Source: Promethearchaeota archaeon (GTDB taxonomy: Archaea > Asgardarchaeota > Thorarchaeia > Thorarchaeales > Thorarchaeaceae). From it: 64,000 bases of DNA. Positions 19,346 to 58,056 of the stretch are shown one piece after another. Every line of letters starts with the position of its first letter. The first letter of the stretch is position 1. The DNA lies in contig WJMJ01000101.1 in assembly GCA_014728035.1 (NCBI GenBank), forward strand, positions 1 to 64,000, written 5' to 3'. The position numbers and the translations under genes are program-made. The notes under the pieces are model-generated. The model saw nothing but the letters and a program-made list of their open reading frames with translations. It had not been told where the DNA came from and ran no database searches.

Positions 19346-19353
19346 TATATAAT

Positions 19354-19431
19354 TCAGGCCCTCATCCTCGGGCCTAAGCTCACCCACGATGGTGAGTAAT
19401 CTCCGGATGGAGACCATACAATGGGTGTAAT
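19354..19431 (+). ncRNA. Conserved 78-nt triple-hairpin element, copy 1 (array leader/scaffold)
   Basis: AGGCCC/GGGCCT, GCTCACC/GGTGAGT, TCTCC/GGAGA stems; near-identical copies at 19911 and 57653; TATAAT directly upstream. Confidence 0.6.
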
Positions 19432-19521
19432 GTGATGCCCATGTGCGCATGGAAGGATGGATGGAATGTCCGACAGGAGTTACGCCCACGTACGCATGGC
19501 CCCGCGTGCATGGGAGGATGG
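19432..19521 (+). CRISPR. Degenerate CRISPR-like mini-array 1
   Basis: Repeat GTGATGCCCATGTGCGCATGGAAGGATGG (19432-19460), 18-nt spacer, then a repeat with an internal duplication ending TGGGAGGATGG. Confidence 0.6.
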
Positions 19522-19853: not shown

Positions 19854-19910
19854 AATTCCTTTTCTAACAGTTTACCTTTGCATCTCATATTTATCCCTAT
19901 GATATATAAT

Positions 19911-19988
19911 TCAGGCCCTCATCCTCGGGCCTAAGCTCACCCACGATGGTGAGTAATCTCCGGATGGAGACTATACAACGGGTGCAAT
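19911..19988 (+). ncRNA. Conserved 78-nt triple-hairpin element, copy 2
   Basis: Two substitutions relative to copy 3; shares a further 21 upstream nt with copy 1. Confidence 0.6.
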
Positions 19989-20162
19989 GTGACACCACGT
20001 ACACATGGGAGTTTTCACAGTGCTCCTTTCACTCACACACTCGTAACGCCCACGTGGGAGGATGGTAGCCTCTGTAGTAGCCGTGACACCCACGTACGCA
20101 TGGGAGGATGGCATGCGATTGCTGTTGTCGTACCAACAAGAAGAATGACCGCCCATGTGCGC
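19989..20162 (+). CRISPR. Degenerate CRISPR-like mini-array 2
   Basis: Repeat variants at 19989, 20043 (23 nt), 20083 (full 29 nt) and 20145 (trailer); spacers of about 31, 17 and 33 nt. Confidence 0.65.
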
Positions 20163-20209
20163 TCACTGGAACCGCAAGTTACGCGTGGGTTAAATGGAGA
20201 GGAGTAAAC

Positions 20210-20392
20210 ATGCGAGTCGTATGGGAAGTTGATGATGGTTATGCAGGCCCCAGTCGTCCGCAGGTCACCATGGTAGACGATGACGAGCTTGCCGAATGTG
20301 AGACGCCGGAGGAGCGGGGGCAACTCATCAAGGATTATGTGCAGGCGGATTTCGACCAGCGCATCTCGTGGTATATCACAAGCAGGGAGTAG
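20210..20392 (+). CDS. Small acidic protein directly downstream of array 2
   Basis: GGAGAGGAG RBS; 60 aa, 15 D/E versus 6 K/R; GC-richer than its flanks. Confidence 0.7.
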   Translation: MRVVWEVDDGYAGPSRPQVTMVDDDELAECETPEERGQLIKDYVQADFDQRISWYITSRE

Positions 20393-32377: not shown

Positions 32378-32931
32378 ATATGATTGACGATCCAATCTTA
32401 CAACAATTAATTTCTAAAGTAGCACAACATGAAACACAAAATGACATCGATGATATTGATGACAATATGGGTGAAGACATAGATGATACACACGATGAAG
32501 ACATAGATGATACACACGATGAAGACATTGTCGAACCAGATGATATAGGTACTAGTGACATTGTGCCCACAGAAGATGCAGACACCGAAGTGGATGCTAT
32601 TAATGCAGATATATCAGACGGCAATAATACGCCTGAAGACGATATTGATAATGATCTTAATAACAAATTCAACGAAATGGTAAACGAAGTACATCAAAAT
32701 TATAAACAAGATAGAGAGAATATATCTGATTTTATAGAATTCCTTAAACACAAGATTGAAAATGACGAAGGCATGCCTGTGCGCGTATATTATGAATCAC
32801 TGTCTTCTTGTCTGCGAACAAAATCAGAATCATCTGCTACCATGATAAAATTGCTAGACAATATCAATAAAAGAACAAATAAAGAGAGTGGTGGCCTTAA
32901 TATTAATTTGCAAGAATTATTGCAAGAATGA
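32374..32931 (+). CDS. Acidic protein, positional candidate for small terminase
   Basis: Translationally coupled upstream of terL; DIDDTHDE tandem repeat. Confidence 0.45.
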   Translation: MNMIDDPILQQLISKVAQHETQNDIDDIDDNMGEDIDDTHDEDIDDTHDEDIVEPDDIGTSDIVPTEDADTEVDAINADISDGNNTPEDDIDNDLNNKFNEMVNEVHQNYKQDRENISDFIEFLKHKIENDEGMPVRVYYESLSSCLRTKSESSATMIKLLDNINKRTNKESGGLNINLQELLQE

Positions 32932-35900
32932 ATGATTTAACCAAAAGCAAAATTAGAAAAGTCATTAAGGATTGCCAAAGTTCCTGCGATTATTTTATTA
33001 ATAAATATTGCAAAGTTAAGCACCCATCTGCTGGCATCATACCTTTTACCACTTTCTCATATCAAAAGAAATGCCTAAGAGCATTTCAAGAACACCGGTT
33101 CAACATTTTCAGTAAAACCCGACAATGCTTTGCTGAAGGTAGCATGGTTTGGACTCCTTTAGGCCCAAAACCCATAGAAAGCATAAAACCACATGACATT
33201 ATATATACATTAAAAGATGGTATTTTGACTACGGCGCAAGTCAGTAAAGTGTTTAACAATGGTTCTGCAGAATGCGTTCAGGTGCGCACCAAGTCAGGAC
33301 ATAGATCTATCAGCACACCAGATCATAAATTTTTAACCTATGATGGATATAAGGAAGCATCACTATTAACTCAAAATGATATTCTTGTGGAAGTTAATGA
33401 CCTACCTCACTATAATACAACAGATAATAGATCCAAAGCAATACTTCTGGGATACCTAATAACCGACGGATATTGTGCAGGATCTGCTCATTTTACCAAT
33501 ACCAGATGGAAATATCTATTGGATTTCCAAAAACATTACGAACTTTTGTTTAATGACAGATTGAAAATTAAGAAGCATTCAACATCTGGTTTTGGATCTG
33601 AGGCAGCATTCCGCATATGCTTGCGTAAAGACGGCAAAGAATGGCTAAAGAAATTGGGAATATGGGGATTAATAGGAGAAAATAAGCGCGTACCTAACGA
33701 AGTTTTTTCTTGGGATAATGATTCTATAGCGATCCTTATTAATAGGATGTTTGCTGGCGATGGATGGTATACAGGATCGATAAACACTAATGAGGCAGGG
33801 ATTGGATCTGAATCTAATATATTGTTGCATCAAATCAAGCAATTGTTATCAAGATTTGGCGTAAATTCAAAATATTGTCCAGCGAATAAAATATCTTTAC
33901 CTAAATTGCGCATAGTGGGTGGTAGAAGTTTTAAGAGATTTCATGATATAATAGATATATTTGGTAAGAAACCAAGACACAAAATAACGAAAGGATTTAT
34001 ATTTAACCGCAAAATTGGTCAAGTCTTGTCTGTTACGCCAGTGGACGGTAATAGACAAGTATATGATTTGCTCGTACCACCAAATCATAATTATGTGGTG
34101 GACGGAGCCGTAGTTCATAATTGCGGAGCGTCAACTCTATCTGGGTCTTTTGCTTTATGGTTTACCATGTTCTTTGGAAACAAAACAACACTCATCACCT
34201 CGAAAAGAGATAATGATGCCAAAGAATTTATGGGCAAGAATATCAGGTTTGTGTGGGATAATCTTCCTGATTGGATGAAATCAATTTGGCAACCCACAGT
34301 TGACAACGAACACGAATTTGGATTTTCCAATGGATCTAAAATTAAATCATTGCCATCCGGACCACATACATTAAGACAATTTTCATCATCTCTCAATATC
34401 ATTGATGAGGCTTCTGTATCTCCACATATGGAAGAAATGTGGGCATCTGGATCTCCCACGTTACAACACGGAGGTCGATGTTTATCCGAAGATTCATTGA
34501 TTGTTACACGAGATGGGTTGGTTTCTATAAGCAAAGTGAAAGATGGTGATGACATCATATTAGATGGTATACATAATGTAGAGTCCAAATACGTCAACAA
34601 AGACATTGAAGACACCATTTCTATAACCACTAGTGATGGACACTATGTACAAGCAACTCCAGATCATAGATTTAAAACAATAAACAATGATGGTGACATA
34701 TCATGGAAATTAGTGTCTGACTTATCATTGGGCGACCACCTAATACTCGATTGTGAAGAAATACAATATGGTAGTATACAAGAATTAGACGACAATATTA
34801 ATAAACTTATTGCTATAAAATGTGGTTGCGACAATGGATGTATTAGCTGCGCAACCTCGATGAATATGTTGAGAAATAAACATATTCCGAAGAGTCTAGA
34901 TGAGAATTTATCATTATTATTGGGGTGCGTATGGGCAAATGGGTTTATTCAAGATTGTGGCAGAATTGGTATATCATATAATAGTAAGTATGGTGATTTA
35001 TCAGATAAAATAAAATCAATAATAAATAATATACCCCATATGCACACATGGGAAGAACAACACAATGGGGATCACAGTATACGGTTTCATTCAAAGTCAC
35101 TGACACTTGCTTTGGAATTAAATGGAATTATAAAAGCATCAGCGAATTATATAGAAATACCCAGTTTGATTTTGAAATCGCCTGAAAATGTGCGTTGTTC
35201 TTTCTTGCGTGGATTTTTTGAACTAGATGGTAGTATATCAGGCGATCAAGTATCAGTGTCTTCCACCAGTCTACGCATGCTAAGACAGATACAAATTATG
35301 CTTCTTAATATGGGAATGCGCAGCATAATTGCTACGTATGAAAGAACCAATGGATATGCAGAGGGACTACAACATGAGTTAACCCTCAAAACCAAGAATG
35401 ATGTGATTAAATTTAGAGATAAAATTGGGTTTCTAAGTACTTATAAACTTAATCTTTTAAATAATGTAAATGCAACTAAGCGATCGCACAATGATCGTTT
35501 CACACATCAAAACGCAATTGATAAATTTTATGACGCCAGCAAATCTTTACCGTCAACTACTAGACAGAGAATATTACAATGCAAAAGAAATTCATCCTTG
35601 CCCAGATATCTAGCCAAAACCATGTGTGAACATGAATGTTTAAAGAATACTTCATTGGGGATATTAGCCAACACCAATAAGTTTACAGATACTATTGTGA
35701 ATTTAGAACAATCAAAATCTTATGTACAAGATATACAGGTGTCAGATATTAATTCTTATGTAGCCAATGGTTTTGTATCACACAATTGTTTAGTAGTCGC
35801 GACTAGTAATGGCATAGGCAATTGGTATTGGAAGACATGGACTGATGCGGTCGCTGGTTATAATAATTTCCACCCAATCGTTATCGATTGGTGGGATATG

Positions 35901-37082
35901 GATTGGGAAATTAGATATAAAGATTCAATAAGCGGTAAGATGATCATATTATCGCCAACGCGTAACATGAGAAAATGCAGAGATGAAAAAGAAAGAGCAA
36001 AATATGGCCCATATTGGAGTCCATGGTTAGAAAATGAATATAGACAACTGGTTGCCCGTGGCGGAGAGAATCTGTTCAGACAAGAAATATTGAGGGATTT
36101 TCTTGGTAGTGGCAATACAGTTATATCGCGTGATGCCATTTTACATATTAGGGAGACTGAAAACAGAGATTATGAAACAGTTAAAAATGTGGATTTTGTA
36201 CACCCAGTGACAGGAGATAACCACAGAATAGAATTTGATGATAACTTATGGGTGTGGAGAAAACCACAACCTGATCATGTGTATACAGTTGGTGTTGACA
36301 TTTCTGGTGGAGAATCACACGACTGGTCTGCCATAGAGGTATTTGATGTCTTGGAACAAGAGCAGGTGGCGGAGTTACAGATCAAAACCACCCCAACTAA
36401 TCTTGTAATGATGGTAGATTTCATCGGTAGATGGTATAATAATGCCATAGTAGTTCCTGAGCGTACTGGTATTGGGCAGACAGTTTGCCAAGATTTAGAA
36501 GTGGCACATTATCCACGGTTGTGGCGACGTAATATGTTACACAATGGAAAGGATAAAAATAGCACCAAAAAATCAAACCATGTTGGCTTCTTAACCACTG
36601 GATCAGGAAAACCAATCATAAATAGAGCATTAATAGATAATTTGGGTCCAGATGGATACAACATATATTCGCACAGATTATGTCAACAAATCGAAACATA
36701 TGTACATCTTGGTGCTGGTAAAACTGGTGCTGAAAAGGGCACATTAAATGATGATTTACCAATTGCATCTGGATTGGCATTTATAGGTGCAGATCAAGCA
36801 GTAGTACGTGGTAATAATATATTATTACCATTGATTTCTGATGTTAATAGTATTACCAACAAATATACTACACAAAGAAATAATGATGGACCAAAAGTAA
36901 TTAAGGACCATAATGCCCTTCAACCAGTGGGCACAAAACAGGAACCAGATAGGAATACAGACATCCAAAAGCAGGTTACCGAATTCACCACAAATCTGAT
37001 CAAACAGCCCAATGTAGAACTTCCACGGGTAAAGAAACGTAATGATAATGGTCAGAAATTGCTGTTTGGAATTCGCAAATAA
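32928..37082 (+). CDS. terL: Large terminase subunit precursor with two inteins (mature about 616 aa)
   Basis: Spliced KTRQ|CGAST Walker A, IIDEA, ATSNG, VGVDISGG, VPERTGIG, NDDL nuclease motifs. Confidence 0.95.
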   Translation: MNDLTKSKIRKVIKDCQSSCDYFINKYCKVKHPSAGIIPFTTFSYQKKCLRAFQEHRFNIFSKTRQCFAEGSMVWTPLGPKPIESIKPHDIIYTLKDGILTTAQVSKVFNNGSAECVQVRTKSGHRSISTPDHKFLTYDGYKEASLLTQNDILVEVNDLPHYNTTDNRSKAILLGYLITDGYCAGSAHFTNTRWKYLLDFQKHYELLFNDRLKIKKHSTSGFGSEAAFRICLRKDGKEWLKKLGIWGLIGENKRVPNEVFSWDNDSIAILINRMFAGDGWYTGSINTNEAGIGSESNILLHQIKQLLSRFGVNSKYCPANKISLPKLRIVGGRSFKRFHDIIDIFGKKPRHKITKGFIFNRKIGQVLSVTPVDGNRQVYDLLVPPNHNYVVDGAVVHNCGASTLSGSFALWFTMFFGNKTTLITSKRDNDAKEFMGKNIRFVWDNLPDWMKSIWQPTVDNEHEFGFSNGSKIKSLPSGPHTLRQFSSSLNIIDEASVSPHMEEMWASGSPTLQHGGRCLSEDSLIVTRDGLVSISKVKDGDDIILDGIHNVESKYVNKDIEDTISITTSDGHYVQATPDHRFKTINNDGDISWKLVSDLSLGDHLILDCEEIQYGSIQELDDNINKLIAIKCGCDNGCISCATSMNMLRNKHIPKSLDENLSLLLGCVWANGFIQDCGRIGISYNSKYGDLSDKIKSIINNIPHMHTWEEQHNGDHSIRFHSKSLTLALELNGIIKASANYIEIPSLILKSPENVRCSFLRGFFELDGSISGDQVSVSSTSLRMLRQIQIMLLNMGMRSIIATYERTNGYAEGLQHELTLKTKNDVIKFRDKIGFLSTYKLNLLNNVNATKRSHNDRFTHQNAIDKFYDASKSLPSTTRQRILQCKRNSSLPRYLAKTMCEHECLKNTSLGILANTNKFTDTIVNLEQSKSYVQDIQVSDINSYVANGFVSHNCLVVATSNGIGNWYWKTWTDAVAGYNNFHPIVIDWWDMDWEIRYKDSISGKMIILSPTRNMRKCRDEKERAKYGPYWSPWLENEYRQLVARGGENLFRQEILRDFLGSGNTVISRDAILHIRETENRDYETVKNVDFVHPVTGDNHRIEFDDNLWVWRKPQPDHVYTVGVDISGGESHDWSAIEVFDVLEQEQVAELQIKTTPTNLVMMVDFIGRWYNNAIVVPERTGIGQTVCQDLEVAHYPRLWRRNMLHNGKDKNSTKKSNHVGFLTTGSGKPIINRALIDNLGPDGYNIYSHRLCQQIETYVHLGAGKTGAEKGTLNDDLPIASGLAFIGADQAVVRGNNILLPLISDVNSITNKYTTQRNNDGPKVIKDHNALQPVGTKQEPDRNTDIQKQVTEFTTNLIKQPNVELPRVKKRNDNGQKLLFGIRK
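33126..34121 (+). mobile_element. Terminase intein 1 (LAGLIDADG, 332 aa) in Walker A
   Basis: CFAEGS...TPDHKF...LGYLITDG...MFAGDG...VVHN|C. Confidence 0.95.
34479..35786 (+). mobile_element. Terminase intein 2 (LAGLIDADG, 436 aa)
   Basis: CLSEDS...TPDHRF...LRGFFELDG...VSHN|C. Confidence 0.95.
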
Positions 37083-57396: not shown

Positions 57397-57652
57397 ATAT
57401 TTAGATTCCCCGCATCAAAAATAATATGTAGGCGTCAGCAATCTTACCGTTTTGATGGGGGTATGCAAATGCCAAGTTGCTGCAGGGAAGCGAAAGTATT
57501 ACACGAAGCATATTATGATGGCCATTTGTTTAGATGGTTGAGATGTGATATTTGTGGTGGTTTGCGTCTAGAGAAAGTGGACCATCAACGGGTTGCATAA
57601 TTACACCCTATGTACAATTGATGTCGGCAATATATAATATTAACTAACAATG

Positions 57653-57730
57653 TCAGGCCCTCATCCTCGGGCCTAAGCTCACCCACGATGGTGAGTAATC
57701 TCCGGATGGAGACCATACAACGGGTGTAAT
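57653..57730 (+). ncRNA. Conserved 78-nt triple-hairpin element, copy 3
   Basis: One substitution relative to copy 1, which lies 38 kb away; TATAAT at about 57633. Confidence 0.6.
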
Positions 57731-58056
57731 GTGACGTCCACGTACGCATGGGAGGATGGAAAGGAGGGCCAGCCATGGCTTCGATCTACAAGTGACGTCC
57801 ACGTACGCATGGGAGGATGACACGCCTTAGTCTCTCAGAGTCACAGTGGCCGGTGATGCCCACGTACGCATGGGAGGATGGCTTGATGTGGTTGCTTCGG
57901 CACAAAAACATTGCGTGATGCCCACGTACGCATGGGAGGATGGACTATGTAGCCGCGTGCCGCTCTTTCCGAACGTGACGCCCATGTGGGAGGATGGCCG
58001 ACGGCGAACGGTGTAGATTCGGCGTGACGCCCACGTACGTATTGTACGCGTGGATG
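57731..58056 (+). CRISPR. CRISPR-like array 3: 29-nt repeat GTGAYGYCCACGTACGCATGGGAGGATGR, 5 spacers
   Basis: Repeats at 57731, 57792, 57853, 57915, 57975 (23-nt variant) and 58024 (degenerate trailer); unique spacers of 32, 32, 33, 31 and 26 nt; about 61-bp period like type I-E. Confidence 0.88.

Follow-up and report, generated by a model that had tools for sequence, protein, structure and literature searches.

The first spacer of a repeat-spacer array on a tailed phage contig contains a Shine-Dalgarno sequence and a start codon, a motif that was very probably taken from the start of a real gene together with its ribosome-binding site. The spacer is probably the one most recently added to the array, and the phage appears to carry its own reader of such guides, a predicted nuclease-dead homologue of Cas12f. 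The explanation that we prefer is that a guide made from this recent spacer is read by the dead Cas12f homologue, is directed at the start of an integrase gene and blocks its transcription, and taken as a whole we put this somewhat short of an even chance. Spacer 1 is a concrete and testable lead, and the wider system of dead Cas12f, scaffold RNA and arrays is the more important object.

The phage contig and the first spacer of array C

The window, i.e. the whole stretch of DNA that was analysed, is the first 64 kb of contig C70 (121 kb, 38% GC), which was binned with a Thorarchaeota MAG; the bin is 4.3 Mb in size and its contamination is 8.5%. C70 is a tailed phage with genes for a putatively intein-bearing large terminase, a portal, tail fibres and a DnaB helicase, and its portal is 32-36% identical to the portals of T4-like Microcystis and Flavobacterium phages. 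The large terminase ORF (window 32928-37082) is 1384 aa long, and helicase- and endonuclease-like segments split its terminase matches, which suggests one or more inteins. The spacers of C70 and of two other contigs in the bin, C131 and C74, had no match in the archaeal contigs of the bin, and the binning therefore tells nothing about the host of the phage.

Array C lies on the plus strand at window 57731-58052 and consists of 29-nt repeats with a period of 61-62 nt, of which the last two are truncated or degenerate; the poorer state of its right end is consistent with a transcript that begins on the left. Repeat 1 (57731-57759, 29 nt) is followed by spacer 1 (57760-57791), repeat 2 (57792-57820, 29 nt) and then by spacers 2-5 and repeats 3-6 (57821-58052). 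Spacer 1, AAAGGAGGGCCAGCCATGGCTTCGATCTACAA, occurs once in the window and is thus a unique sequence between direct repeats in an array that decays at its distal end, as is expected of a spacer in a type V-F-like (Cas12f) array. All the elements of a gene start that had been described in it are there, namely AAGGAGG (57761-57767, with GGAGG at 57763-57767), a gap of 7 nt (57768-57774) and an ATG (57775-57777), which is followed by GCT TCG ATC TAC AA and opens the frame M-A-S-I-Y and then AA. The core of the spacer, GCCATGGC, is palindromic and gives an ATG on the minus strand too, with the Shine-Dalgarno on the plus strand only.

Repeats 1 and 2 are siblings that share the variant GTGACGTCC, whereas repeats 3 and 4 are without it and both carry GTGATGCCC (window 57731-57943), as expected if spacer 1 was the last one to be added. 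Spacer 1 is a genuine spacer and probably the most recently added one of array C. The pairing of repeats 1 and 2 against 3 and 4 also fits the trace that a polarised, repeat-duplicating insertion of spacers would leave; no cas1 or cas2 was seen in the phage contigs. The preliminary description had called the spacer leader-proximal, which holds for its position, after repeat 1 and directly 3' of a 78-nt scaffold, and does not hold for the upstream element, which is a folded scaffold RNA and no classical leader.

How often a spacer would contain such a motif by chance was estimated with GGAGG-N5-9-ATG. Of random 32-mers composed like the spacers 0.10% contain it, and in real DNA (the phage contigs, 27 bacterial loci and the rest of the MAG) the figure is 0.11-0.24% of the 32-nt windows on each strand. 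It is against this low rate that we regard the motif as very probably copied from a real gene start. The alternative is that the Shine-Dalgarno and ATG did not come from any target, and are either a chance motif, the rate of which is after all not zero, or a working mini-ORF of the array transcript. Repeat 2 indeed supplies the final G of the Lys codon AAG, and a TGA directly after it, so that the pre-crRNA, as read from the sequence, contains a closed ORF of six codons, MASIYK, and a stop (57775-57795, plus strand). Against this stand the GC-rich gap between the Shine-Dalgarno and the ATG, where the gaps are AT-rich in those of the phage's own genes that were inspected, the finding that no other array contains such an ORF, and a rate of just 0.1% per spacer. 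We consider this alternative very improbable, and the mini-ORF in the transcript of array C is probably incidental.

That the motif is copied from a real gene start does not make the choice of that gene start deliberate. With about 20 spacers in the phage, the probability that at least one has the motif by chance is about 2-10%, and none of the remaining spacers, read by eye, has it. Systematic targeting of gene starts would predict more of them than one of about 20, and the single case is only weak evidence for deliberate targeting. Foreign DNA could therefore have been sampled at random, with one spacer happening to span a gene start and serving maybe as a historical record with no role tied to the ribosome-binding site, and the visible decay of several of the arrays would suit such a record. 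On the other hand, 2-10% is still low, a dead effector must sit at a promoter or a 5' end to have an effect, and in published relatives the guides are located at promoters (PMC13472631), so we find random sampling rather unlikely as the full explanation. The wording of the preliminary description, that the spacer fits inter-element conflict or silencing rather than random sampling, is nevertheless not borne out in its last part by one spacer of about 20.

The scaffold RNA and the nuclease-dead Cas12f homologue

Array C is fused to a 78-nt scaffold RNA (57653-57730, plus strand) which folds as three hairpins, and upstream of it is a promoter-like site that matches the consensus, TGTACA-16-TATAAT (57611-57638, plus strand); similar TATATAAT boxes are found upstream of the other scaffold copies. 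There are six near-identical copies of the scaffold in the bin, each at the head of an array; C70 has three, C131 has two and C74 has a single one. By scaffold alignment, the other two on C70 are array A (19353-19520) and array B (19910-20170), both on the plus strand and both with the scaffold of array C followed by decayed repeats. Hairpin 1 has the loop TCATCCTC, which is complementary to the final 8 nt of the repeats and in reverse complement reads as their end, GAGGATGA/G, as a tracr or anti-repeat should, and in repeat 2, which ends in A, the 8-nt match is perfect. The duplex energy of loop and repeat, compared with shuffles, gave no discrimination. Rfam had no match at the array C locus, a 23-mer of the scaffold had none in IMG/VR, and a two-repeat pattern found only an unrelated giant-virus duplication. 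Arrays B and C both run into the ribosome-binding site of the next small ORF (at 20210 and 58075). The one directly 3' of array B (20210-20392) has 60 codons, a strong ribosome-binding site and a GC content of 56%, unlike the 38% GC backbone.

The only copy of a dCas12f-family gene in the bin is on C131, a separate contig from that of array C in a contaminated bin, and encodes a protein, P0001, of 463 aa. The two contigs carry a near-identical scaffold and repeat, and from this we infer that C131 is part of the same phage as C70. As a single sequence P0001 matched the Cas12f structure 9nzq with E=1.5e-6, and AsCas12f (7wju) was also matched; a profile of 31 family members gave E=1e-22 to 9nzq and E=3e-14 to 9n9c, which is annotated as 'Nuclease-deactivated Cas12f'. 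In the alignments the Asp of RuvC-I is replaced by Ala and the Glu of RuvC-II by Phe, in agreement with the family consensus, and the protein stops about 16 aa past the position aligned to residue 363 of 422 in AsCas12f, before the zinc finger and RuvC-III. By these alignments P0001 is a nuclease-dead, C-terminally truncated Cas12f homologue.

Before the dCas12f gene was found, the first reading of the locus was a cas-less type I-E array or an Racr decoy, and it was demoted thereafter. A version of it can still be put forward, in which the arrays are not read by dCas12f and instead exploit a type I-E system of the host, as hijacked guides or as RNA anti-CRISPR decoys. The geometry is certainly that of type I-E, with 29-nt repeats, 32-nt spacers and a period of 61 nt, and the sequence of the repeat gives a stem of CCCACG/CATGGG with a C-A mismatch; solitary repeats in phages can reportedly act as RNA anti-CRISPRs. 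However, every array is fused to a scaffold with a hairpin loop that pairs to the repeat end, and this complementarity is kept, in differing sequences, in distant relatives that bear dCas12f. In three of them (L046, L047 and L053) the loop of the first hairpin is, by eye, complementary to their own, different repeat end. Loop and repeat end thus change together, which argues that the arrays serve the dCas12f homologue and not a type I-E system of the host, and we hold the latter to be quite improbable. As we see it, the transcript of scaffold, repeat and spacer would be read by the phage's own predicted nuclease-dead Cas12f homologue.

An exhaustive search for the P0001 family gave 132 representatives at E<=1e-10, and at the loci examined, which have a GC content of 55-67%, the gene stands beside a scaffold and short arrays. 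A word-index protein search with P0001 returned the query alone, and a search for related loci with this single protein found nothing. In three of the four distinct elements examined (L047-L049, L051/L052 and L053) there is also a conserved neighbour gene for a protein of about 212 aa. Its coordinates are 7454-8092 in L047, 6221-6859 in L051, 3836-4495 in L053 and 10076-10768 on C131 itself (L009), and the proteins, of about 212-230 aa, are 23-30% identical among distant relatives. The neighbour protein had no match in Pfam or among the PDB sequences, and its AF2 model (pLDDT 77) had none in the PDB by Foldseek; an ECF sigma factor with a C-terminal extension was considered for it, and the same Pfam, PDB and Foldseek searches gave no such match. 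We also considered spacer 1 as a relic of the start of the dCas12f gene itself, and rejected this as none of 153 family proteins begins with MASIY.

Possible targets of spacer 1

The spacers have an average GC content of 53%, against 42% in the dCas12f gene and 38% in the phage, and are thus foreign to the phage. They come plausibly from a GC-richer host or from its mobile elements. Spacer 1 would then be a copy of the ribosome-binding site and the first five codons of a gene in such a GC-richer genome, either that of the host or that of a mobile element within it.

No protospacer of spacer 1 was found in the MAG, IMG/VR, INPHARED, PLSDB, the GTDB species genomes or the JGI metagenomes, and no consistent TAM or PAM emerged from these searches. 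The preliminary description had named IMG/VR as a place to search for the protospacer, and neither the exact 32-mer nor a 21-mer of spacer 1 had a match there, and spacers 2 and 4 gave 0 matches in the same database. All spacers were negative by blastn-short against the 4.3-Mb bin. In INPHARED and PLSDB the best blastn hits of spacer 1 had E values of 0.7-9, among them matches of 20/22 to the capsid genes of YuA-like Pseudomonas phages, which were counted as one chance event. Searches with the whole arrays against phages and plasmids were negative or at chance level. Among 185,579 GTDB species genomes a 22-mer of spacer 1 gave 0 matches, and a wobble-tolerant 18-base pattern gave 27, none of which extended past the pattern (best 25/32). 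A 21-base pattern found 2 matches in the JGI metagenomes, both of 22-23/32.

The preliminary description had held that N-termini of the MASIYK type are common in tyrosine integrases, and we scanned IMG/VR for GGAG-N4-10-ATG encoding MASIY[KN], which gave 77 loci and 68 ORFs of at least 60 aa. By raw count the claim stands, with the Arm-DNA-bind_4 domain in 48/68 and Phage_integrase in 47/68 of the ORFs, but it is weakened by dereplication. Clustering at 50% identity left 15 clusters, and integrases make up six of them, one being a prophage cluster of 46 members and the other five singletons, at loci with a GC content of 32-68%. The other nine contain a gp25 baseplate protein, a tail tube protein, tail protein X, a tail terminator, a GIY-YIG protein and unknown proteins. 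None of the IMG/VR loci is the target itself; the best one, L127, shares 16 of the 17 coding bases and differs in the upstream region. In 401 Pseudomonadota genomes there was no gene start with a Shine-Dalgarno and MASIY[KN], which makes the peptide informative mainly for prophages of some lineages.

With six clusters in 15, five residues give roughly even odds and not an identification, and the target gene would most likely, at about those odds, encode a tyrosine integrase with an Arm-type N-terminus. That spacer 1 is directed at an integrase gene start is a hypothesis drawn from these residues, to which we give a little under an even chance. The spacer could also have been taken from a real gene start that is not that of an integrase, e.g. 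a host gene, or one, structural or otherwise, in a competing phage, to which the same dCas12f would bind and not cut. The nine dereplicated clusters that are not integrases speak for this, and virus-borne mini-arrays are said to target related viruses. The raw count, in which 70% of such genes are integrases, and the recurrence of MASIYK in integrases of six separate clusters, which differ widely in GC content, point the other way, and we think of a non-integrase start as possible though doubtful.

Predicted action of the guide and related systems

Cas12f and TnpB guides carry the spacer 3' of the repeat, and its sequence is that of the non-target strand. Spacer 1 is sense-strand sequence, and by this rule the partner of its guide would be the template strand, over the ribosome-binding site and the start codon, from about -16 to +5 relative to the ATG with a 20-nt guide, or to +17 with the whole spacer. 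Since the protein that would hold it is predicted to be without cutting ability, binding would stop transcription and not destroy DNA, i.e. the bound dCas12f would block transcription of the target gene and leave the DNA intact. The strongest repression by DNase-dead Cas12a is obtained with crRNAs to the template strand (PMC5460296). Silencing had been suggested already in the preliminary description, and it now gains independent support from the cognate effector, which by its sequence is a nuclease-dead Cas12f homologue.

Two other modes of action can be weighed against the same geometry. An antisense RNA is ruled out, as the guide and the mRNA have the same sense. In the dCas12f-sigmaE systems the distance from the TAM to the downstream transcription start is 46 bp (PMC13472631), which would here place the start about 30 bp inside the ORF, and activation of the target gene is on this ground unlikely. 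The geometry of the guide thus fits repression rather than cleavage or activation, and the use of the guide, the TAM, the repression and the identity of the target are all inferred.

The closest parallel is the array-associated dCas12f cluster described by Hoffmann et al. 2026 (PMC13472631, Extended Data Fig. 1a,b), which likewise consists of RuvC-inactivated, C-terminally truncated Cas12f homologues beside CRISPR arrays and has a guide-RNA scaffold upstream that covaries; it is by these shared features that we see the P0001 family as alike. The guides of that cluster are at 5' regulatory regions, in some cases at promoters that drive efflux cassettes, and the authors suggest that they repress (PMC13472631). 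Those loci are from bacterial genomes, the efflux promoter being that of a Chitinophagaceae MAG, whereas the system here is in a T4-like phage and has at least six scattered scaffold copies. The dCas12f-sigmaE systems, e.g. of Flagellimonas taeanensis (PMC13472631), share the dead Cas12f, for which the profile match to 9n9c was given above, the scaffold and the 3' guide, but they have an ECF sigma factor as partner and a 5'-G TAM, in place of which we find here the conserved neighbour protein that is without matches.

For a virus whose spacers are directed at other mobile elements of its host, the kind of conflict that the preliminary description envisaged, there are parallels too, in the type I-F CRISPR of phage ICP1, which is said to act against the PLE satellite, and in the virus-borne mini-arrays. 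These reportedly cut DNA or use nucleases of the host, whereas the effector here is predicted to be nuclease-dead. If the target of spacer 1 were confirmed, it would be the first concrete target for a phage-borne dead-Cas12f system, and it would mean that phages silence the integrase of another element instead of cutting its DNA. One can go further and imagine a lytic T4-like phage that uses a dead Cas12f and updatable, scaffold-fused mini-arrays as a programmable silencer, with its newest guide on the ribosome-binding site and ATG of an integrase gene in a satellite, prophage or ICE. This more ambitious version we regard as unlikely; were it true, it would amount to RNA-guided transcriptional warfare between mobile elements in which no DNA is cut.

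A phage-borne dead protein of the TnpB/Cas12 lineage with a 3' guide at the 5' region of a single gene is also known from TldR of temperate phages, where it serves repression, as is predicted here (Wiegand et al., bioRxiv 10.1101/2023.11.30.569447; PMC13418256). TldR is of the TnpB lineage and not Cas12f, it has a single fixed guide and no repeat-spacer array, and its known target is the fliC promoter of the host (PMC13418256). In the relative L047 (5886-6003, from a contig of ENA ERZ27309505) the last repeat of the array upstream of the dCas12f gene is directly followed by the Shine-Dalgarno and ATG of that gene (CAAAGGAGGATGTATG). The terminal pseudo-guide would there match the ribosome-binding site of the effector itself, which could be a form of autoregulation. 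In the relative L051 (5785-6230, from a contig of NCBI GCA_025464665.1) the units of the array have shrunk, with repeats of about 8-12 nt (GCTAGAGG) and spacers of about 20 nt, and there are several tandem copies of the scaffold, an arrangement intermediate between a CRISPR array and a set of single-guide RNAs.
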